IMG/VR virus record: IMGVR_UViG_3300045988_047456
Direction: 5' to 3' (one strand)
Source: a virus
Length of the DNA stretch: 49,265 bases
The notes under the pieces are model-generated. The model searched no databases, was not told where the DNA came from, and saw nothing but the letters and a program-made list of their open reading frames with translations. Shown in pieces: positions 5,753 to 36,762 of the stretch (positions are counted from its first letter, which is position 1; each line of letters begins with the position of its first letter). Position numbers and translations under genes: made by a program.

Positions 5753-7692
5753 TGTTAATGTGGAATCCCAGTAAATTAACAACCGCAGGAAAAGCCCTCC
5801 TGGCAAAAGCCCAGGCAGGACAGACAAGCATCCAGATCACCAAGGCACAGACTGGATCCGGTTCTTATTCTTCCGGAGAAAACATCGAGAGCAGAACAGC
5901 TCTGAAGACTCCGAAGCAGACCTTCCCGATTCAGAATAAGGTGATCAACGATGCAGACAACACAGTGATTCTGAAGATTGCGATCACAAACAAGAGCGAA
6001 GAAGAAACCCTGAGCACCGGATACGACATCACTGAGTTTGGTATCTTTGCACAGGATCCGCAGAAGGGAGAAATCCTGTATTCCATCGCTACTGCATCCA
6101 CAAGCGATTATATGCCGGCATACAACGGTGTACTTCCGTCAGTGATCAACATGAGTTACTACCTGGAAGTTTCAAACGCTGAGAATGTAACAATCAACAG
6201 TGCCGGAGCTCTGGCTCTTCAGGCCGATCTGGAAGCCCTGGAAGCAAGAGTGACCACCATCGAGAAGAACAAAGTAGAACTGCTCGGAGTAAGAAGAAAA
6301 GTCGGTGTCAGCTCTTCGACATGGGAGCGCATCGGGGACGCTGTCGGCATGGTCTGCAAGGCAGCAGTCGGAAACGGAACCGTTCAGAATGACATGATGA
6401 GCCACTATCCATTCAATGAAATGCGTCCATGTAACCTGGCAGAAGACAGAACTGTCAACGCATACCTGGGAGATGCAACCTTCCAGTGGGATGGCACGAA
6501 CGGGGACGTTATGCTGGAAGTGCCGATGACATACACCGGCCGCTGGTTTGAAACTGATGCAGACGGCGTGAAGTGGGAATACAGAGCTGTATCTTCCGCA
6601 CAGATCGGACACCTTCACCTGGATCACCTGTTTACAGATGGCGCTGATCGCAGAATTTCCGAAAAGGTATACATCCCGATCTTCCCTGGCTCCATTGAAA
6701 CAGTTCAGAGATCAGTGAAGAATAGCCAGGGCACCTATGATCTTAAACAGGTAGATATCCTGAGATCCAAAGCAGGAGTTGTGCCGGCACATAACAAGAC
6801 ACGCGGACAGTTTAGAACCTTATGCAAGGCCAAGGGAGACAACTGGTATCTCGACGACGTATGGGCTATGCATTTCCTGGATACCTGCTTCCTGGTAATG
6901 TTTGCAAACAGCAACGCGCAGGCTACTCTCGGATCCGGACGTACAGAGTTCCCGGAGGATGGAACAAAGGGACTGGCTCTTCAGGAGAGAACCGGCAATT
7001 ACATCACTGTGGCAAAGGACTATGGAAATCGCTTCGCCGTCGGACAGGCAATCTCCATCGGTGCCGGCTTGTGGAGCCAGAGTCTGGCAGCAGACCGCCT
7101 GGTAACTAAAATCGAAGATTCCACCGAAGTAGATAACGCAGTATGCGTATACTTCGACGGCGATCCGGTAGCGATCACATCAACCAGCGTCCTGTGGTCT
7201 TCTATTCAGCCGACAGGAGCAACTATCGGAATGGCAGCACCAAACGGCCGCGTAGAGGGTAAAACAAACGGAATGAGTGCGATCCGTTTCCTCTGGATTG
7301 AAGACTGGTACGGAAATATGTGGCAGTTCAGAGACGGAGATAACATTCAGAAGTACCAGCATTACTACTGCAATGACAGAAGCGCATATGCCGACAAGGT
7401 ATATGATGGCTCATATTTCAAAGTCGGATATGTAGCAGGTACCGCCGAAGGCTATGTGAAAACATTCGGTTTCGATCCGGAATGGCCGGAAATTGAAATC
7501 TGCACAGAAAACGGAGCGTCCAGCAACACCTATTTCTGCGATTACTATTATGCCGCCGAAGGCGGAGAAGTGGTCTTCTCGGGTGGTCACGTGAACTACG
7601 GGGCGTTCTCGGGTCCGTTCGACCGGCGCTGCAACTCCTCGGCTACGTCCTCGTTCTGGAGCATCGGCGGTCGCCCTCAAGCTAGAAAGTGA
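5752..7692 (+). CDS. tail fibre / receptor-binding protein with C-terminal C-type-lectin/FGE-like variable domain (DGR target)
   Basis: 646 aa with a TAATG start overlap. N-terminus 'LTTAGKALLAKAQAG..IQITKAQTGSGSY' resembles a tail-collar fibre. C-terminus 'IRFLWIEDWYGNMWQF' followed by 'FSGGHVNYGAFSGPFDRRCNSSATSSFWSIGGR' is the CLec-type end typical of DGR variable proteins. The VR occupies the last 40 codons. Confidence 0.85.
   Translation: MLMWNPSKLTTAGKALLAKAQAGQTSIQITKAQTGSGSYSSGENIESRTALKTPKQTFPIQNKVINDADNTVILKIAITNKSEEETLSTGYDITEFGIFAQDPQKGEILYSIATASTSDYMPAYNGVLPSVINMSYYLEVSNAENVTINSAGALALQADLEALEARVTTIEKNKVELLGVRRKVGVSSSTWERIGDAVGMVCKAAVGNGTVQNDMMSHYPFNEMRPCNLAEDRTVNAYLGDATFQWDGTNGDVMLEVPMTYTGRWFETDADGVKWEYRAVSSAQIGHLHLDHLFTDGADRRISEKVYIPIFPGSIETVQRSVKNSQGTYDLKQVDILRSKAGVVPAHNKTRGQFRTLCKAKGDNWYLDDVWAMHFLDTCFLVMFANSNAQATLGSGRTEFPEDGTKGLALQERTGNYITVAKDYGNRFAVGQAISIGAGLWSQSLAADRLVTKIEDSTEVDNAVCVYFDGDPVAITSTSVLWSSIQPTGATIGMAAPNGRVEGKTNGMSAIRFLWIEDWYGNMWQFRDGDNIQKYQHYYCNDRSAYADKVYDGSYFKVGYVAGTAEGYVKTFGFDPEWPEIEICTENGASSNTYFCDYYYAAEGGEVVFSGGHVNYGAFSGPFDRRCNSSATSSFWSIGGRPQARK
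7570..7676 (+). repeat. DGR variable repeat (VR)
   Basis: A 107-bp match to 7866..7972 (offset 296) with 100 identities. All 7 mismatches (7576, 7588, 7597, 7607, 7621, 7655, 7661) correspond to A in the TR copy. The invariant GC-rich 3' block CATCGGCGGTCGCCC (7662..7676) looks IMH-like. Confidence 0.9.
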
Positions 7693-7865: not shown

Positions 7866-7972
7866 GTGGTCATCTCGGGTGGTAACGTGAACAACGGGGC
7901 GTACTCGGGTCCGTTCAACCGGCGCTGCAACTCCTCGGCTACGTCCTCGTACTGGAACATCGGCGGTCGCCC
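7866..7972 (+). repeat. DGR template repeat (TR)
   Basis: Non-coding copy of the VR. It carries A at all 7 variable positions and contains several AAC/TAC/ATC codon-equivalents. It lies 169 bp upstream of the RT gene. Confidence 0.9.
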
Positions 7973-8140
7973 ACTTTGTTAATAATCTCATTCCGACATA
8001 TTTCTCAATTTTTGATTTTATAAATATGTCGTTCCTTTATTCGCTGGCCATAGAGCCACCGCCATGCAGAGCCATGGTGCCGCACCGCTTGGTGAAAATG
8101 GGCCGTAAATGGCACCGGTTAGTAGCATGATCGAAAGCCG
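7973..8140 (+). ncRNA. DGR RNA spacer between TR and RT (predicted structured)
   Basis: No ORF. Hairpins: CGACATATTT (7994..8003) with AAATATGTCG (8022..8031); CACC-gctt-GGTG (8083..8094); GGTGCC (8076..8081) with GGCACC (8111..8116). A related CCGACA/TGTCGG hairpin (7796..7811) lies upstream of the TR. Confidence 0.4.
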
Positions 8141-9307
8141 GTGAGGCTAACAAAGAGATTAAATATACCAATGATAACTGAACCAATAAAATTCACAAAG
8201 AGAATCGGCCATCTCTTCGAGAGAGTGGTAGACCTGGATAATATCAAGCTGGCGATCAGAAACGCTGCGAAGCGTAAGAGCGACCGTCCCTCAGTCAGAA
8301 GGATTCTGCTGGACGTTGACAAGTACGCGCAGAAGCTGCAGGAAATCCTGATCACAGAGAGCTGGGTACCCCATGCGTACCACATCCGAGAGATCAACGA
8401 TGGCATTAAGAAAAAGAAACGTATCATCGCAGTACCGCGCTTCTTTCCGGATCAGTGCATTCATCACGCATTTGTCCTGGTATTTAAGGAAGTCGTGGAG
8501 CATGGCTCCTACGAGCATAGCTGCGGATGCGTGCCAGGGAAAGGAACTGACGGAGCCCGGAAGGTTATAAAGCGCTGGGTTGTGAATGATCCAAAAGGGA
8601 CGAGCAAAGTCGCTGTCTTGGATGTGAAGCAGTGCTATCCGACGCTGCCGCATGAACAGCTCCGTCTGAAGCTGGAAAAGCGTATCAAGGACCGGAAGTT
8701 CCTGCGACTTGCCTTTAAGATCATAGCCAGCTATCAGCAGGCCATGGCAAACAAGACGCAGCTGCTGCCGGAAACTATCGCAGTCGGAATTCCCGTCGGC
8801 TTATACACGTCTCCCTGGTTTTTAAACTTTTTCTTTCAGGACCTGGACCACCTGATTGCAGAGAAGTGTGGCCTCAGTCATCTCGTAAGATACGTTGATG
8901 ATATGGTCCTGTTCGATAATTCAAAGAAACGACTGCACGCAGCGATCAGAACAGTCGGAGATTATCTGCAGCATATGCAGATGAGACTGAAAAGCACCTG
9001 GCAGGTGTATCACTTACGGATTCGCCCGCTTGACTTCTTAGGGTTCAAGTTCCATGCGAACGGGAAAATAACCCTCCGGAAGTCAATCCTGTACAGGATA
9101 TCCCGCAAGGCCAGGACAATAGCACGAAAGGGCTATGCTTCAGTAACCAACGCCTCCGGTATGATCAGCTACAAAGGATACATGGATCATTCAGATTCCT
9201 CCGGATTCTATGAGAAATGGGTCCAGCCGTTTATAAATTTCAAAGTTCTGAAAGGAGTAGTAAGCAATGAGAACAGAAAGCAATGTAAAGCCCTCTGCGC
9301 AGCTTGA
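8141..9307 (+). CDS. DGR-type reverse transcriptase
   Basis: 388 aa from GTG 8141, or 378 aa from ATG 8171. RT motifs 'IIAVPRFFPDQCIHHAF', 'DVKQCYPTLPH', 'GIPVGLYTSPWFLNFFF' and catalytic 'YVDD' (8891..8902). Adjacent to the TR/VR pair. Confidence 0.9.
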   Translation: MRLTKRLNIPMITEPIKFTKRIGHLFERVVDLDNIKLAIRNAAKRKSDRPSVRRILLDVDKYAQKLQEILITESWVPHAYHIREINDGIKKKKRIIAVPRFFPDQCIHHAFVLVFKEVVEHGSYEHSCGCVPGKGTDGARKVIKRWVVNDPKGTSKVAVLDVKQCYPTLPHEQLRLKLEKRIKDRKFLRLAFKIIASYQQAMANKTQLLPETIAVGIPVGLYTSPWFLNFFFQDLDHLIAEKCGLSHLVRYVDDMVLFDNSKKRLHAAIRTVGDYLQHMQMRLKSTWQVYHLRIRPLDFLGFKFHANGKITLRKSILYRISRKARTIARKGYASVTNASGMISYKGYMDHSDSSGFYEKWVQPFINFKVLKGVVSNENRKQCKALCAA

Positions 9308-31312: not shown

Positions 31313-31532
31313 GAAATTATTTCTTCCGCCACTGAGCCAGACCGCACAGATGAGGAACTTTCTTCTTCAGATGCCGGTACCGGCACTTTTGTCAAGTCTG
31401 GAAACTACGGTGAGTATCCTGACAGAAAAAGGCATTGAAATAAAGGACTGGGAAGACAAGGACAGATACCTGGTGCAATTTAGACAGCTGGGAGGAAAGT
31501 GCTACTTCTTCGCACAGCGGAAAGAGAGGTAA
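31281..31532 (+). CDS. hypothetical protein
   Basis: 83-aa ORF. Confidence 0.4.
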   Translation: MKRRKPKTENKKLFLPPLSQTAQMRNFLLQMPVPALLSSLETTVSILTEKGIEIKDWEDKDRYLVQFRQLGGKCYFFAQRKER

Positions 31533-31537
31533 GACCC

Positions 31538-32062
31538 ATGGACAGGGACGAAAAAGAAGATAGAGAAATATTGAAGTTCGTTCTGGAACAGATCTATCGG
31601 GCGAAGCGCCGCAAGGGCCAGCTGGACCGGAGGCTTGAGAATTTGAAGTGCGATATGCGATCCGCACCAGGAGCACAGGGGCGTGGCCGCAGGACCACCG
31701 GAGACCATGGCGATGGCACAGCCAACCTGGTAGTGAAGCAGTCCAGCATCGAAGAGAGAATCGAGAAGCAGAAGTACAACGTCAGCCTCTCGATCGAAAA
31801 GACCATGGACTTATTAGAACTGCTGCCGGAGACGTCCCTGGAACGAGAGATCATGGAACGCAGGCATCTGGACATGGAAGACTGGAAGGACATAGCGGAC
31901 GGCATCTACATGAGCCGGAGTCAGTGCAATAAGCGTTACAATGCAGCACTTAACTATCTCCTACAGCAGGATGGAGTCCTGGACATCGTAGATGAGAACA
32001 AGGCAGTTTACCAGAAACATCTGGCTCAGAAAATGGCCAGGAAAAAATTCTGGAAAAAGTGA
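31538..32062 (+). CDS. late-gene transcriptional activator, sigma-70 region-4-like (ArpU/RinA/DUF1492-like)
   Basis: 174 aa from ATG 31538. 'LEREIMERRHLDMEDWKDIADGIYMSRSQCNKRYNAAL' resembles a sigma region-4 HTH. It is the last gene before the packaging module. Confidence 0.55.
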   Translation: MDRDEKEDREILKFVLEQIYRAKRRKGQLDRRLENLKCDMRSAPGAQGRGRRTTGDHGDGTANLVVKQSSIEERIEKQKYNVSLSIEKTMDLLELLPETSLEREIMERRHLDMEDWKDIADGIYMSRSQCNKRYNAALNYLLQQDGVLDIVDENKAVYQKHLAQKMARKKFWKK

Positions 32063-32115
32063 TACCCGGGGGTATAACCCGGAAAATATTTTCAGGAATT
32101 TTTTTTCAGGAAAAT

Positions 32116-32143
32116 AAAAGCTCGGTGCATCCGGGCTTTTATT
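32116..32143 (+). terminator. intrinsic terminator after the activator gene
   Basis: AAAAGCTCGG (32116..32125) pairs with CCGGGCTTTT (32131..32140) around the loop TGCAT, followed by ATT. It is preceded by two direct TTTTCAGGAA repeats (32089..32098 and 32103..32112). Confidence 0.5.
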
Positions 32144-32149
32144 CCGGAG

Positions 32150-32750
32150 TGAAGCAGGCAGGGCAGTAGGCAGTGACAGGGTAGCAGCTCAAGACCGTAG
32201 CTGCAGCACAGCACTAGCAGAACGCCATGCAGGGAACACAGTAGGCCATGGGTCAGAGACAGGCGTACAAAAGAAGACACCCCGGTAGACGGGGCCAGAT
32301 ATCCGCCCAGGAATATACAGGGCTTACCTTCAGATGGATAGCCGCAGCCAGGGCAGAGGGAGAAGACAGCAGGGGCCAGGCAGCAGGGAACAAGGCCAGT
32401 CAGGACAGGCCAGGCCACACAGCAGCCAGGGCAAGGACAGACAGCACAGGCACAGTGAGGCAGGGCAGGCCATGGGCAGAGCACAGGGACAGGAGGACAG
32501 CATGGAGACACAGCAGGTCAGGCACACACACCACGCACAGCAGACAGAGCCACATGGCACGCAGGGCAAGCGAGGCAGCAGAGGGACGAGGCAGGCCAGG
32601 GGCCAGGCAGCATGGAGCGCAGGTGCAGAGGACCACCCTCTTAAACATGAGACACACTGAGACATCCAACTGTGCTATAGTGGTAGCGTGGCAAGAGAGT
32701 GAGAGAGGACGAGCAAGGCAGGGCAGCACCCCGGCCCACCAGCTCGTAGA
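32150..32750 (+). other. T-depleted (A/G/C-only) non-coding tract
   Basis: I count about 9 T in 32341..32640 (3%) and about 13% T in 32161..32340. All six frames are open simply because stop codons cannot form. CAGGGCA recurs at 32159, 32349, 32427, 32461, 32562 and 32719. The 15-mer AGGGGCCAGGCAGCA occurs twice (32371 and 32598). Confidence 0.8.
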
Positions 32751-32751
32751 G

Positions 32752-32784
32752 AGAGACAGTCGAGAGGCTGTCTCTTTTGTTTTG
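32752..32784 (+). terminator. strong intrinsic terminator closing the T-depleted tract
   Basis: AGAGACAG (32752..32759) pairs with CTGTCTCT (32768..32775) around an 8-nt loop, followed by TTTGTTTTG. Confidence 0.75.
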
Positions 32785-32789
32785 CCTTC

Positions 32790-32880
32790 AGACGCCTACG
32801 CGAGCAGGCCACCCGGCCAGCGCGGCGCGGCTTAGGTACTACCCAGGCCCCCTACGGCCCGCGGCGCGGGGAAGGCCCGG
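32790..32880. repeat. GC-rich direct-repeat cluster (candidate late promoter/activator site or packaging-related site)
   Basis: CGCGGCGCGG occurs at 32821..32830 and 32860..32869. Each copy is preceded by CCTACG and GGCC elements. Local GC is far above the genome average. Confidence 0.3.
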
Positions 32881-32960
32881 CTCTTCACCGGATATGAGCA
32901 AAAATTTTTTCTCTATTTCGTTACGCTTGCCCCAAAATCCCCAGGAAGGAGGCAAAAACC

Positions 32961-34325
32961 ATGGGAGATTATATGAAGATGGAACGCCGAAGGCTTTCAG
33001 ACCTGAGACCTGCGGAATATAACCCAAGGGTTCCGCTTCAGCCGGAGGATAAAGAGTACCAGGACATAAAATGCAGCATCGAAGAGAACGGATACCTGGA
33101 TCCAATCGTGATCAATTACGACGGAACCATCATAAAAGGCCATCAGCGCCGCACAGTTATGATGGACCTCGGAATAGAGGAAGCAGAAGTCGTTGTTCTC
33201 AATATCAGAGACAAAGGAAAGGAAAAGCAGGCCAATATCGCCCTGAATAAGATAACTGGACGATGGGATGAGCTGAAGCTCAGGGACCTACTCTTGGATT
33301 TGGAACTAAATGAGTATGATCTTGCAGCGACTGGATTCTCTACTAGCGAGCTGGAAGACCTCTGCGTGGACTTGGAGAAAGATGCCGAAGCAGAAGATGA
33401 CGACTTCGACCCTGAAGAAGAATACAAAAAAATCGATGAGCCCATAACCAGAAGGGGAGATATCTGGATTTTAGGGCGTCATCGATTAATGTGCGGAGAC
33501 AGTACGTCTCCATCTGACATAGCAGAACTGATGGCCGGTGAAGAGGCCGACCTCATCATAACAGACCCGCCATACAACGTCAACTATGGAGGAAAAACTG
33601 AATTTATGAAGGATTCTGGCAGAGGCCAGGGACAGTCATGCATTCAGAACGACGACATGGATGAGGAAAGTTTTCACGACTTTCTGTTTGACGCTTACGG
33701 ATCAGCTGTCAGTATCATGCGGCCAGGCGCCGCAATTTATGTATTTCATTCCGATTCGCATGGCGAAACATTCAGGAGGGCCTTCAGAGAAGCTGGCCTG
33801 AAGCTGAGCGAGTGCCTGATTTGGGAGAAAAACTCCTTCGTGTTAGGCCGGAGCGATTACCAGTGGATTCATGAACCCATTTTATATGGGTGGAAGGAAG
33901 GCGCTGGCCATTATTTCATTAATGACCGTACTCAGGCTACGGTTCTCATGGATGAAGAGCTGGATCTCGAATCCATGAAGAAAAAAGACCTGATCACATA
34001 CATCGAACAGATCCGGGAGGCGTTCAAAGATCAGACTACGGTTTTATTTGAGAATAAGCCTTTAAGAAACGACATCCATCCAACCATGAAGCCGGTACCG
34101 CTGATTGGAAGACTTATGAAGAATTCCAGTAAACCGGGATGGAATGTCACGGACCTGTTCGGAGGTGGTGGTTCCACCCTCATGGCCGCGGAACAGCTGA
34201 ACCGCGCAGCCTATCTGATGGAGCTTGACGAGAAGTTCTGTGACGTAATCGTCCGCAGGTGGGAAGAGTATACAGGAGAAAAGGCCTTCCGTTTATCGGA
34301 TTCAGACCTAAACCTGCAGCTATGA
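32961..34325 (+). CDS. ParB-like nuclease domain fused to an N6A/N4C DNA methyltransferase
   Basis: 454 aa. N-terminus 'YNPRV..IEENGYLDPIVINYDGTIIKGHQRR' is ParB/Srx-like. 'LIITDPPYNVNYGG' is motif IV and the C-terminal 'DLFGGGGSTLMAAEQL' is motif I (beta-class order). Confidence 0.8.
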   Translation: MGDYMKMERRRLSDLRPAEYNPRVPLQPEDKEYQDIKCSIEENGYLDPIVINYDGTIIKGHQRRTVMMDLGIEEAEVVVLNIRDKGKEKQANIALNKITGRWDELKLRDLLLDLELNEYDLAATGFSTSELEDLCVDLEKDAEAEDDDFDPEEEYKKIDEPITRRGDIWILGRHRLMCGDSTSPSDIAELMAGEEADLIITDPPYNVNYGGKTEFMKDSGRGQGQSCIQNDDMDEESFHDFLFDAYGSAVSIMRPGAAIYVFHSDSHGETFRRAFREAGLKLSECLIWEKNSFVLGRSDYQWIHEPILYGWKEGAGHYFINDRTQATVLMDEELDLESMKKKDLITYIEQIREAFKDQTTVLFENKPLRNDIHPTMKPVPLIGRLMKNSSKPGWNVTDLFGGGGSTLMAAEQLNRAAYLMELDEKFCDVIVRRWEEYTGEKAFRLSDSDLNLQL

Positions 34326-34355: not shown

Positions 34356-34361
34356 ATTTTG

Positions 34362-34949
34362 ATGGCCGAGAACGGTGAAGTCAAAGGAAGCCTCTATCGA
34401 ACCGAAGTAATCGCGCAGCTTTTCGGAGTCAGCGTCCGGAGAGTGCAGCAGTTGACTCAGGAAGGGATAATCTCCACAACAAAGATCCTGGAAGATGGTC
34501 ATACGGTCCGCAGATATGACCTGGTACCGACTATTCAAAGCTACATCAAGTACCTGTCTGAAAAGGCGTATGGGAAAGCTGGGCGGTCGGAAAAGGAAGT
34601 GGAGCTGCGAGAGCAGAAGATGAAGGCGGACGTCGCTCTCAAGGAATCCCAGGGAGAGCTGCACCGGTTAAAAACCGAGATTGCAGCAGGTAAATACATT
34701 TCTATCGAGGAAGTAAAGCTCGATTATGCGAAATTTTTCGTTGCTTTTAAGAAGTTCGCAACATCACTCCCGTCCAGAATCATCGGGATGCTTTCAGGAG
34801 GTATAGACCCAACGGAAGCCCGGCATCTGGAGAAGGAACTGGCCAGTGAGGTCAATCGGCTTTTAGGCGCCTTCGTAGTCGCAGGCGTCGTAGGACCGGA
34901 AGATGTACATGGAACTCAAAAGAAAAAGAATTCAGATCCGCAAGTATAA
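34362..34949 (+). CDS. terS: terminase small subunit (Nu1-like, N-terminal HTH)
   Basis: 195 aa from ATG 34362. 'EVIAQLFGVSVRRVQQLTQEGII...RRYDLVPTIQSYIKYL' is a Nu1-like winged HTH, followed by a coiled coil. It lies directly upstream of terL. Confidence 0.65.
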   Translation: MAENGEVKGSLYRTEVIAQLFGVSVRRVQQLTQEGIISTTKILEDGHTVRRYDLVPTIQSYIKYLSEKAYGKAGRSEKEVELREQKMKADVALKESQGELHRLKTEIAAGKYISIEEVKLDYAKFFVAFKKFATSLPSRIIGMLSGGIDPTEARHLEKELASEVNRLLGAFVVAGVVGPEDVHGTQKKKNSDPQV

Positions 34950-36762
34950 CGTCGCGGAATATCAGAAGGAGGCTATGCGGCAGCTGCAGCCTCCGGAGAA
35001 CCTCACCGTTTCCGAATGGGCCGAAAAGTACAGAATGCTGGACTCGAAAACATCGGCCATGCCTGGGCCATGGAGGAATGAAAAGACCCCATATCTCAAA
35101 GAGATCATGGACGAATTCATTAATTACGACACAGAAGAGATCATCTTCTGTAAACCATCCCAGGTCGGAGGAACCGAGGCAATGCAGAACATGCTCGGCT
35201 ACGTCATTCAGCAGGATCCATCGCCTACGCTTATCGTTTATCCGACAGATACCCTGGCGGAATCAATAAGCAAGAACCGACTGGAACCAATGATCAGAGC
35301 CAGCAAGCCTCTGCGCAAGCTGTACAACGAAAACGAATCATCGAAGCTGGAGCTTCAGTTCGAGGGAATGTATCTCAGTCTCAATGGTGCCAACAGTCCA
35401 TCCGCACTGGCATCTAAGGCAATTAAATATCTTTTTCTGGACGAGGTAGACAAATACCCCGGAGCCAGCAAGAAAGAAGCGGACCCTATCAGGCTGGCCA
35501 GGGAACGTACAAAGACGTTCACCAACCAGAGAAAGATATACATGACAAGTACCCCCACACTGCAGACCGGCCATATTTGGCAGGCCCTTATGGGAGCAGA
35601 TATCGAAAAGCATTACTTTGTCCCATGCCCGCACTGCGGGGAATACATAGAACTGAAATTCAGCAACCTGCGCTTTCCGGACGGAGAAGGCCTGGACAAT
35701 TCAGAGCGCGCTGACATGGCCGTCTATGTTTGCCAGGAATGCGGATGCAAGATCACTGATCAGGACAGAGACCGCATGATTCGATATGGAGAGTGGAGGG
35801 AAGTCAGAAGGAACACGAAGGCAAGTAAGAAAGTCGCATTCTGGATTAATACCCTGTATTCACCGTTTGTGCGCTTTTCTGAAATTGTAAAAGAGTTCCT
35901 CGACAGTAAAGACAATCCTGATCTTCTTCAGAACTTCGTAAACTCATGGCTGGCAGAGCCATGGGAAGACACCAAACTGAAAACGGATGCGGACATGGTC
36001 ATGGAAAGGCAGACAGATCTGCCGCAGCTTGTGGTTCCGGACTGGGCCAGATATCTGACAGCAGGAGTGGACGTCCAGGAGACGTGCCTCTACTGGACAA
36101 TCCGAGCCTGGGGACCGTATATCACGAGTCAAAACATCGCACATGGTCAGGTTCTATCTTTTCAGGATATCGAAAGCATCATGAACACCCCGTACTTGAC
36201 GGAATCCGGAGAACAGGTAGTCGTGTCGCTGTGCCTGATTGATTCAGGATATAACGCAGACAGCACATATGATTTCTGTGCATCAAATTCTGAGTGGGCT
36301 ATGCCGGTAAAAGGCGCCAATAATCCCATGATGTCTCACTTTAAAACATCAAAGATCAACAAGGTAGACAGCAGAGCCTACGGCATGAACTTAGTTCTGG
36401 TTGATGGTGATAAGTACAAAGACATGATTGCATCCAGGATGCGAAAAGACAATGGGAAAGGCGCCTGGATGGTATACGAGGGATGTGATCGGGAATATGC
36501 CGAGCAGGTGACTGCAGAGCATAAAGTCAATGTGAAATCAGGATCCAGAACCATACAGAAGTGGGTACCTAAGCACTCGCACATAGATAACCACTATCTC
36601 GACTGTGAAGTTTACTGCCTGGCCGCTGCGGATATCCTCGGAGTCCGGATGCTTCACCTTCAGGTCGAAGCTGAACGCAAAGAGCAGCTGCAGAGGCAGC
36701 GGGAAGAGAAGCAGGAAACCCCGGAAGAAAACTGGATCCGGGCAAATGAACACTGGGTATAA
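34903..36762 (+). CDS. terL: terminase large subunit, lambda GpA-like
   Basis: 619 aa. 'LTVSEWAEKYRML....PGPWRNEKTPYLKEIMD', the Walker-like 'KPSQVGGTE' and the zinc motif 'CPHCGEYI...CQECGC' are typical of GpA-family terminases. Confidence 0.9.
   Translation: MYMELKRKRIQIRKYNVAEYQKEAMRQLQPPENLTVSEWAEKYRMLDSKTSAMPGPWRNEKTPYLKEIMDEFINYDTEEIIFCKPSQVGGTEAMQNMLGYVIQQDPSPTLIVYPTDTLAESISKNRLEPMIRASKPLRKLYNENESSKLELQFEGMYLSLNGANSPSALASKAIKYLFLDEVDKYPGASKKEADPIRLARERTKTFTNQRKIYMTSTPTLQTGHIWQALMGADIEKHYFVPCPHCGEYIELKFSNLRFPDGEGLDNSERADMAVYVCQECGCKITDQDRDRMIRYGEWREVRRNTKASKKVAFWINTLYSPFVRFSEIVKEFLDSKDNPDLLQNFVNSWLAEPWEDTKLKTDADMVMERQTDLPQLVVPDWARYLTAGVDVQETCLYWTIRAWGPYITSQNIAHGQVLSFQDIESIMNTPYLTESGEQVVVSLCLIDSGYNADSTYDFCASNSEWAMPVKGANNPMMSHFKTSKINKVDSRAYGMNLVLVDGDKYKDMIASRMRKDNGKGAWMVYEGCDREYAEQVTAEHKVNVKSGSRTIQKWVPKHSHIDNHYLDCEVYCLAAADILGVRMLHLQVEAERKEQLQRQREEKQETPEENWIRANEHWV

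Follow-up and report, generated by a model that had tools for sequence, protein, structure and literature searches.

Why should a phage keep a few hundred nucleotides of one DNA strand almost clear of thymine (T)? The question is raised by the IMG/VR virus record IMGVR_UViG_3300045988_047456, a stretch of 49,265 nucleotides (the window, in what follows), in which an earlier inspection of the letters and their open reading frames (ORFs), here the original prediction, had drawn attention to a T-depleted tract at 32116-32784 on the plus strand. The tract is a real and widespread compositional element of an undescribed kind, apparently maintained by selection. As to its role, the reading favoured here, tentatively, is that of a non-coding, DNA-level and signal-free buffer placed before a late promoter and a cohesive-end (cos) site.

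Thymine depletion and its recurrence

A windowed count of 32341-32640 on the plus strand gives 9 T in 300 nucleotides (3.0%; A 30.3%, C 28.3%, G 38.3%), the number originally estimated. This excludes an ordinary T content and is the minimum among all 300-nucleotide intervals of the whole stretch, the next non-overlapping minimum being 11.3% and the sliding mean 20.5% (standard deviation 4.2%). The parts concerned are the following.

32340 to 32638, plus strand: thymine-free core by maximal-segment scan, with 8 T in 299 nucleotides (A 31%, C 28%, G 38%)
32144 to 32339, plus strand: T-poor 5′ shoulder, about 6-20% T per 50 nucleotides, with k-mers as in the core and one CAGGGCA

The 3′ shoulder (32639-32748) is moderately T-poor, like its 5′ counterpart. 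Of the 600-bp tract initially proposed, the 300-nucleotide core is thus extreme but the shoulders are less so, T over the full 32116-32784 being 10.3%. In the core the dinucleotide odds are 2.4x for CA, 1.6x for AG, 0.18x for AA and 0.19x for CG. The repeats reported earlier are present: the six copies of CAGGGCA all lie in 32144-32760, versus 4 on the plus and 4 on the minus strand across the remaining 48.6 kb, and where a 15-mer was said to occur twice, an exact 16-mer does so, at 32370 and at 32597. There are also internal degenerate duplications, and the pile of overlapping ORFs (108-195 amino acids, on both strands) is as first described. Over the whole window some words are skewed towards the plus strand, e.g. 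ACAGCAG (19 versus 1) and ACAGCA (40 versus 4), and AT skew is +0.2 to +0.3 wherever the genes are on the plus strand; the tract is composed of the same skewed words.

Relatives were collected from IMG/VR by the methylase, by the cos DNA pattern and by the large terminase (TerL), and are cited by their L labels where they have to be told apart. Counting was restricted to distinct loci that have this cos and no fewer than 900 nucleotides upstream of it, 113 in all, the score required of a T-poor segment being at least 70. Such a segment, of 110-540 nucleotides, lies upstream of cosQ, an element shortly before the packaging cut, in 64 of the 113, and always on the same strand. The tract-bearing loci form 24 groups that have almost no 12-mers in common and are not mutually alignable. 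For comparison, A-poor and G-poor segments score at most 68 and C-poor ones up to 97, the high C-poor segments that were inspected lying scattered and consisting of ordinary AT-rich sequence. C-free tracts in AT-rich relatives were considered as possible equivalents and rejected as ordinary coding or intergenic AT-rich DNA, with only that of L004 at the homologous place. Downstream of cos a comparable T-poor stretch occurs only in L091 and L056 (score 70), and that of L091 (5900-6260) is coding, being the Lys/Ala/Thr-rich low-complexity N-terminus of the small terminase (TerS). Tract-bearing prophages are found in Lachnospiraceae and Oscillospiraceae (for example Blautia, including Blautia ammoniilytica Sanger_23, L226; Agathobacter, including Agathobacter sp. 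LCP21S3_B2, L255; Dysosmobacter; and ‘Clostridium sp. OF03-18AA’, L200 and L270), and the GC content of tract-bearing loci is ~48% or more in nearly all. A second cos type (GCGCCTTGAGCC...) is without a T-free tract. Five contigs with that type (L323, L325, L326, L328 and L343) start, at position 1, with GCGCCTTGAGCCCG; further sites of the type, at L316 3986, L320 3703 and L322 4216, have no T-free tract upstream, and L322 has a ~100-nucleotide A-poor, T-rich stretch in its stead.

CAGGGCA occurs 22 times across the tracts, versus 1.1 expected, in 9 of 15 lineages. GGCAG is in the tracts of 15 of 15, yet is common genome-wide, and apart from it no single box or word is shared by all lineages. 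Most lineages have AA at 0.2-0.5x, CG at 0.15-0.4x, GA depleted and CA at 2-2.4x, biases that the rest of the genome lacks, and in the most distant lineages only the T depletion persists. To judge from these alignments and counts, what is conserved is thymine depletion and not sequence. Some close relatives are without the tract, which is therefore an accessory element. Absence from near-identical phages, with no phenotype, had been named beforehand as a mark of junk or of an assembly chimera; some close relatives do lack it, and it recurs at the same place in 24 lineages. A full-text search of the literature gave no description of such a tract, in keeping with the initial statement that no phage element of this composition had been described; the paper on Faecalibacterium phage Epona does not mention it, and in INPHARED the matches were limited to the methylase gene of Faecalibacterium phage FP_Epona and some weaker ones, and the tract itself had no close relative there.

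Over the tract, identity among close relatives is 94-99%, similar to the flanks, and ongoing hypermutation of the whole tract was rejected on this ground. Polymorphism was counted in five clusters of such relatives, over 1113 columns. T is the majority base in 18 of these columns and half of the 18 are polymorphic, versus 9-13% for A, C and G columns, while 30 of the 142 minor alleles (21%) are T; the flanks show no such asymmetry. The window and L063, at 94% overall identity, have 2 of 7 T positions in common. Since the contexts of the residual T are near expectation, ATG and GTG included, T is disfavoured regardless of its neighbours. T arises by mutation but rarely becomes the majority base. 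Purifying selection against it is apparently the simplest reading, and T-specific hypermutability also fits.

Could the tract nonetheless be neutral low-complexity DNA, a slippage-prone, CAG-like expansion of coding-strand words with no function? Its words are common and strand-skewed on the coding strand genome-wide, as with the 19:1 of ACAGCAG, it contains degenerate duplications, and some relatives lack it. However, T depletion recurs in 24 unalignable lineages though T makes up 21% of minor alleles, and neutrality is disfavoured because drift would restore T. Tandem Repeats Finder gives only 2.6 copies of one 16-mer (32571-32612), so that a tandem repeat was rejected, and autocorrelation of the tract has no dominant lag. 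A neutral origin is, in our estimate, very improbable.

The chromosome end beside the tract

At least ten independent IMG/VR contigs (L002, L007, L034, L036, L058, L059, L061, L067, L068 and L074) begin at the same aligned column, equivalent to window position 32864 and 51 nucleotides before ATTTCGTTACG. The starts read GGGCG... in relatives and GCGCGGGG... in the window lineage. Because the starts are shared and the terminase is of the gpA type, the neighbouring element is identified, at the level of sequence, as a lambda-type cos cut at 32864; the cosQ-cosN-cosB subsite scheme is taken from PMC4669245.

32833 to 32842, plus strand: cosQ-like element TAGGTACTAC, invariant in 10 of 10 aligned lineages, about 21 nucleotides before the cut
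32864 to 32875, plus strand: left chromosome end GCGCGGGGAAGG, where contigs start; a putative 12-nucleotide cohesive end by analogy with lambda
32915 to 32926, plus strand: cosB-like box ATTTCGTTACGC, invariant, 51 nucleotides after the cut

The T-free core ends 225 bp upstream of this cut, on the strand that runs 5′ to 3′ into cosQ, and the suggestion that genome termini might lie near the tract is in this way confirmed from the contig starts. As cos is internal to it, the window is a circular permutation or a prophage-order copy of a cos phage. By analogy with lambda, the right end, which holds the tract, would be packaged last and injected first, and the T-free strand is the one ending 3′ at that presumed right end. 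Across all lineages the tract lies 35-230 bp from the physical end. Its distance from cosQ ranges from 1 to ~215 bp; it abuts cosQ in L135, L097, L144 and L065/L240, and in L135, in the L065/L067 lineage and in L067/L068/L074 the late promoter module is downstream of cosB. By position, the tract is tied to cosQ and not to the late promoter. The site is like lambda cos in having a gpA-type terminase, a defined end (GGGCG... in relatives), an invariant box upstream and, next to the terminase genes, a conserved box downstream, and unlike it in that the tract is dispensable in relatives with the same cos. To our knowledge, no compositional tract is known upstream of cosQ in lambda-like cos sites.

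Proximity to an end that may be the first to enter the cell brings up protection of that end. The tract could be a Chi-like brake, or a dispensable fast-evolving buffer, against AddAB/RecBCD and against spacer capture by CRISPR, the premise, itself drawn by analogy, being that AddAB/RecBCD would load on the first-entering right end and scan the 3′-ended T-free strand. The injected cos end has been described as a substrate for AddAB and for spacer acquisition up to the first Chi (PMC8860600), a published finding that favours this idea, as do the nearness of the tract to the physical end (35-230 bp), its polarity, which is that of the strand scanned for Chi, its presence or absence among close relatives, in the manner of many anti-defence loci, and the short G-rich words that stand in it in one orientation (CAGGGCA, 9 lineages of 15; GGCAG, 15 of 15). 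Yet no word is common to all the tracts and spacing is irregular, CAGGGCA is neither enriched nor skewed elsewhere in the phage, a model built on motifs leaves the disfavour of every T unexplained, and injection of the right end first is itself deduced. Protection of the end is, on this balance, unlikely. With Chi, and with the FtsK-orienting polar sequences (KOPS) and SpoIIIE recognition sequences (SRS), the tract shares strand-polar, G-rich, largely T-free short words of the type read by a translocating enzyme, and its orientation is the one that an AddAB/RecBCD entering from the end would read. Those systems are, in contrast, specific 5-8-mers distributed genome-wide, whereas the tract conserves composition and its words have no enrichment outside it. 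Neither regular spacing nor helical phasing of AGGGCA boxes was found, and the conservation of CAGGGCA spacing that the original prediction had proposed to look for is not there, the spacing being irregular and the motif missing from several lineages.

The same position also invites a role in packaging, in which a translocating terminase, which might, by analogy with other viral packaging motors, follow the 5′ to 3′ strand in the direction of packaging, would read the tract as a run-up; in a variant, TerS or the ParB-methylase would wrap the tract. In both forms recognition of cosQ-cosN at the end of packaging would be aided. Without exception the tract occupies the side from which cosQ is approached, with fixed polarity, in the L240/L065 lineage the GCTGTGCC boxes reappear immediately past cosQ, and there is a resemblance between the cosB box CCGGATATGA and the CCGGAAAA arrays next to the tract. 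However, ~43% of loci with the same cosQ, cosN and cosB do without a tract, the distance to cosQ varies from 1 to ~215 bp, no box is shared across lineages, and no packaging motor known to us reads sequence like this. Both forms of the proposal seem to us distinctly unlikely, more so than protection of the end. In L240 (5920-6640) and L065 (1-420) the GCTGTGCC boxes punctuate T-poor blocks. As a separate observation, arrays of 9-15 CCGGAAAA(T) repeats stand between the activator gene and the tract in L009 (3150-3300), L017 (3180-3420) and L051 (3100-3300), with a few copies in the window at 32030-32115; they score as tandem intrinsic terminators on the minus strand, and their resemblance to Noc/ParB half-sites (TTTCCGGAAA) and to the cosB box makes them candidates for sites where the ParB-methylase or TerS is loaded. 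Herpesvirus pac1 and pac2 are terminus-near cis elements defined partly by composition (G/C-rich, T-rich). They differ in being short, essential and of other composition, and the likeness to the tract is one of description only.

The other features around the tract are as follows.

31499 to 32062, plus strand: late transcriptional activator gene, matching phrog_36 and phrog_248, with no Pfam match
32113 to 32143, plus strand: hairpin with 13-nucleotide arms (92% complementary), then TTTTATT, directly after the activator gene
32279 to 32295, minus strand: hairpin resembling a terminator, GCCCCGTCTACCGGGGT followed by GTCTTCTTTT, on the tract's left edge
32648 to 32664, plus strand: two direct repeats TGAGACA, 10 nucleotides apart, abutting the tract
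32673 to 32681, plus strand: extended -10 element TGCTATAGT
32684 to 32691, plus strand: conserved initial transcribed box TAGCGTGG
32749 to 32788, plus strand: strong intrinsic terminator, a 13-pair stem (32749-32778) and a T run, ending a short late leader
32961 to 34325, plus strand: ParB-N and N6/N4 DNA methyltransferase gene, the first gene after cos
34359 to 36762, plus strand: small terminase (phrog_57) and lambda gpA-type large terminase (GpA_ATPase 8.7e-81, GpA_nuclease 1.3e-73)

The PHROG and Pfam matches of these neighbours support the location first given for the tract, between a late activator and the packaging genes. The direct repeats, lineage-specific in sequence, conserved in position and 10-11 nucleotides apart across relatives, are probably the activator site of a conserved late promoter, whose leader would start near 32688, extend for ~90-100 nucleotides and is variable among relatives; in the leader of the L139 lineage an a-b-a′-b′ (pseudoknot-like) complementarity was seen, by eye only. 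The order conserved in relatives is repeats, extended -10, TAGCGTGG, leader, terminator, TAGGTACTAC, CGG(G)GCG(A/G)GGAAGGCCCG and ATTTCGTTACGC. Because the late promoter (32648-32681) sits between the core and the downstream terminator, that terminator is part of a separate leader. The proposal of a tract bracketed by two terminators therefore stands only for its pieces: the downstream terminator is strong and the upstream hairpin (32113-32143), though unlisted by the terminator scan, exists and is probably a bidirectional terminator, but the tract is not one bracketed unit. Relatives show minus-strand sites similar to the 32279-32295 hairpin. The module at 32648-32788 recalls lambda pR′-6S RNA-tR′, with regulator sites at the -35/spacer, a strong -10, a short leader and a strong terminator; the likeness is the neighbour's and not the tract's, and the regulator matches PHROG transcription-regulator families, not Q.

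Several small elements are recurrent on the 5′ side of the tract. TTTTCAGAA boxes and CCCC-ATATA-GGGG palindromes are present there in many lineages, and repeated CCCC-(A/T)6-GGGG palindromes, e.g. CCCCTATATAGGG, in L050, L115, L139, L152, L185 and L090, the latter being -10-like but without the final T. Conserved TTTTCAGA(A) boxes are located just 5′ of the tract in L006, L009, L017, L028 and L193, and at 32085-32110 and 32328-32336 of the window; in many cases they occupy the loop of a small GC hairpin, the stem of which varies in sequence by lineage, and they resemble the centre of what we take to be the CodY consensus, AATTTTCWGAAAATT.

What the tract does not encode

If the tract were translated, 3-base periodicity would be expected and relatives should keep the reading frame, and neither is seen: in an autocorrelation over the 24 lineages identity at lag 3 is below expectation (z -5.7), single 1-nucleotide indels separate the close relatives L017/L018, L016/L037 and L016/L030, and none of the tract's five ORFs matches a Pfam or PHROG family at E≤0.1, one chance-level value of 0.088 apart. 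The original view of the tract as non-coding is upheld by this lack of periodicity, of intact frames and of family matches, and the conserved low-complexity protein that homologues might have encoded was not found, indels breaking the frame and periodicity being absent.

Other candidates fared no better. A G-quadruplex array was rejected, since GGG runs are present but there are no canonical motifs and only one motif with 12-nucleotide loops; the G4Hunter mean over the tract is 0.26 and the maximum 1.4, with only 3 windows reaching 1.2. The quadruplex potential inferred at the outset is thus weak, and the excess of G over C is not kept among relatives, C exceeding G in the tracts of several and the sign of G-C varying by lineage. 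A Rho utilization (rut) region needs C-rich, G-poor RNA, and the plus-strand RNA here has 38% G versus 28% C. Rfam at gathering thresholds has its sole match in the window at 8083-8157 (RT-18), with none in the tract, and a relaxed scan (E≤5) of 31900-33000 gives one chance match, outside the core. Folding z-scores of the tract RNA, -1.3 and -0.6, indicate no excess structure; against mononucleotide shuffles the mean z is +0.6, by which selection for an unstructured strand is weak and not general. Promoter scans list no promoter-like site on either strand in or beside the tract, and for a leftward promoter of an A-free minus-strand RNA there is no convincing candidate by eye or in the scans. 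A replication origin was rejected for want of a GC-skew inflection at the tract. So too was a partner of the diversity-generating retroelement (DGR), as the window has no other copy of the tract longer than 16 nucleotides; the DGR pair is elsewhere, with the variable repeat (VR) at 7570-7676 and the template repeat (TR) at 7866-7972 (107 nucleotides, 93% identity), and the earlier remark that nothing links tract and DGR remains valid. The RT-18 RNA motif (74.6 bits) is upstream of a reverse transcriptase ORF.

These results bear directly on whether the tract acts through RNA. Rightward transcription, whether it passed through the activator terminator or began at a promoter that escaped recognition, would yield a uracil (U)-free RNA whose hybrid with DNA, having no weak rU:dA pairs, would be very stable and which would be resistant to RNases that depend on U. 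Priming of replication, opening of the late-promoter region and service as a stable RNA are the roles that such a hybrid or RNA might have. The energetics are suggestive, the tract being the genome-wide minimum for hybrid versus duplex at -0.28 kcal/mol per nucleotide (mean -0.08, standard deviation 0.05), T is disfavoured in every context, as expected for a compositional property of RNA or hybrid, the polarity of the tract is that of almost all genes, and in the window a strong terminator comes after it. Against this, no promoter-like site is found upstream and T-free DNA cannot hold a -10 element; a terminator hairpin stands ahead of the tract; and the upstream gene in the L240/L065 lineage is a minus-strand amidoligase (Pfam 7e-49), so that in L240 no plus-strand operon feeds the tract. 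Some lineages (L097, L135 and L250) have a tract that continues straight into cosQ with no terminator between, the most strongly enriched step, CA, counts against hybrids according to the nearest-neighbour tables used, and the absence of an Rfam match, of excess structure, of a conserved G>C and of a skew inflection suggesting an origin count in the same direction. The discrete U-poor transcript of ~0.6 kb once envisaged is not supported, no promoter feeding the tract and no excess RNA structure having been found, and a U-free transcript or R-loop zone in general is, like end protection, an unlikely explanation.

R-loop-prone or G-rich non-template tracts include the ColE1 RNA II region, T4 oriF and oriG, and immunoglobulin switch regions. 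The tract is like them in its purine-rich sense strand and in a hybrid stability that is extreme for the genome, and differs from them in that no promoter was found, G richness is unconserved, there is no origin signature and T exclusion is near complete. Of the properties of a Chi cluster it has only the polarity, and of those of an R-loop zone only the thermodynamics.

A possible inert spacer or signal

The tentatively favoured reading, a signal-free buffer, starts from what such a composition would forbid. With no T on the top strand, hence no A on the bottom strand, and few AA and CG, no signal that needs A and T together on one strand could form. On either strand -10 and -35 hexamers and U-tract terminators would be excluded, as would top-strand AUG, GUG and UUG starts and stop codons in any frame, CTA/TTA primase sites, AT-rich sites for a nucleoid protein or regulator, and palindromes that include A/T. 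The outcome would be an inert, melt-resistant duplex of 100-300 bp (up to 540 bp) between the early operon's end on one side and, on the other, cosQ-cosN and a late promoter under tight control; the stretch leading up to the late operon and the packaging cut would in this way be kept free of initiation, of termination and of bound factors. As to the fixed polarity, it could serve a function, or it could be a frozen choice from one ancestral tract, favoured by the genome-wide excess of A over T in the coding strand. A buffer is supported by the tract's place ahead of the late promoter and cos and by the absence of promoter-like sites, and it also covers most of the compositional rules.

A number of points weigh against it. 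It offers no positive ground on which a phage would require an inert spacer, and some relatives with the same cosQ, cosN, cosB and late promoter manage without the tract: in L012, L015, L041 and L054 the upstream gene is directly against the late promoter, and in L004 (900-1130), with 96% methylase identity, a C-poor (6% C), purine- and T-rich spacer, its T content ordinary, replaces the tract. A lone T cannot make a -10 hexamer, from which weaker selection per T would be predicted than the data suggest. There is no special avoidance of ATG and GTG contexts, and by a count on the window sequence the G/C-only palindrome GGCC is not avoided either. The run-up is not ‘clean’ in the window lineage, where the promoter and activator sites intervene between tract and cosQ. 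The depletion of AA, CG and GA is explained post hoc, and polymorphism cannot separate selection against T from T-specific hypermutability.

The alternative is that thymine exclusion is itself the signal, the tract being a strand-polar cis element at the first-injected end of gut Clostridia phages with a lambda-type cos. Such a signal could act on host AddAB or CRISPR adaptation, on the phage terminase, or via a U-free R-loop. We consider this rather doubtful, in its general form and in these particulars alike, and somewhat less so than an R-loop zone or end protection taken by themselves.

At a practical level, the tract yields false stacks of ORFs in all six frames, and it flags the cos site and the genome orientation in metagenomic contigs. 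Non-coding phage DNA is usually read as promoters, terminators, cos or pac sites and small RNAs, all of them defined by sequence or structure. Here a composition of one strand recurs beside the chromosome end in a phage family widespread among the gut Clostridia of humans and animals, and if thymine exclusion is a signal, the tract would represent a new class of non-coding phage element, defined by the base that is absent. If functional, it would point to an undescribed selective force on phage chromosome ends, for which the candidates are pressure from nucleases or CRISPR adaptation on the end that enters, some need of the packaging motor, and silencing of the late operon.

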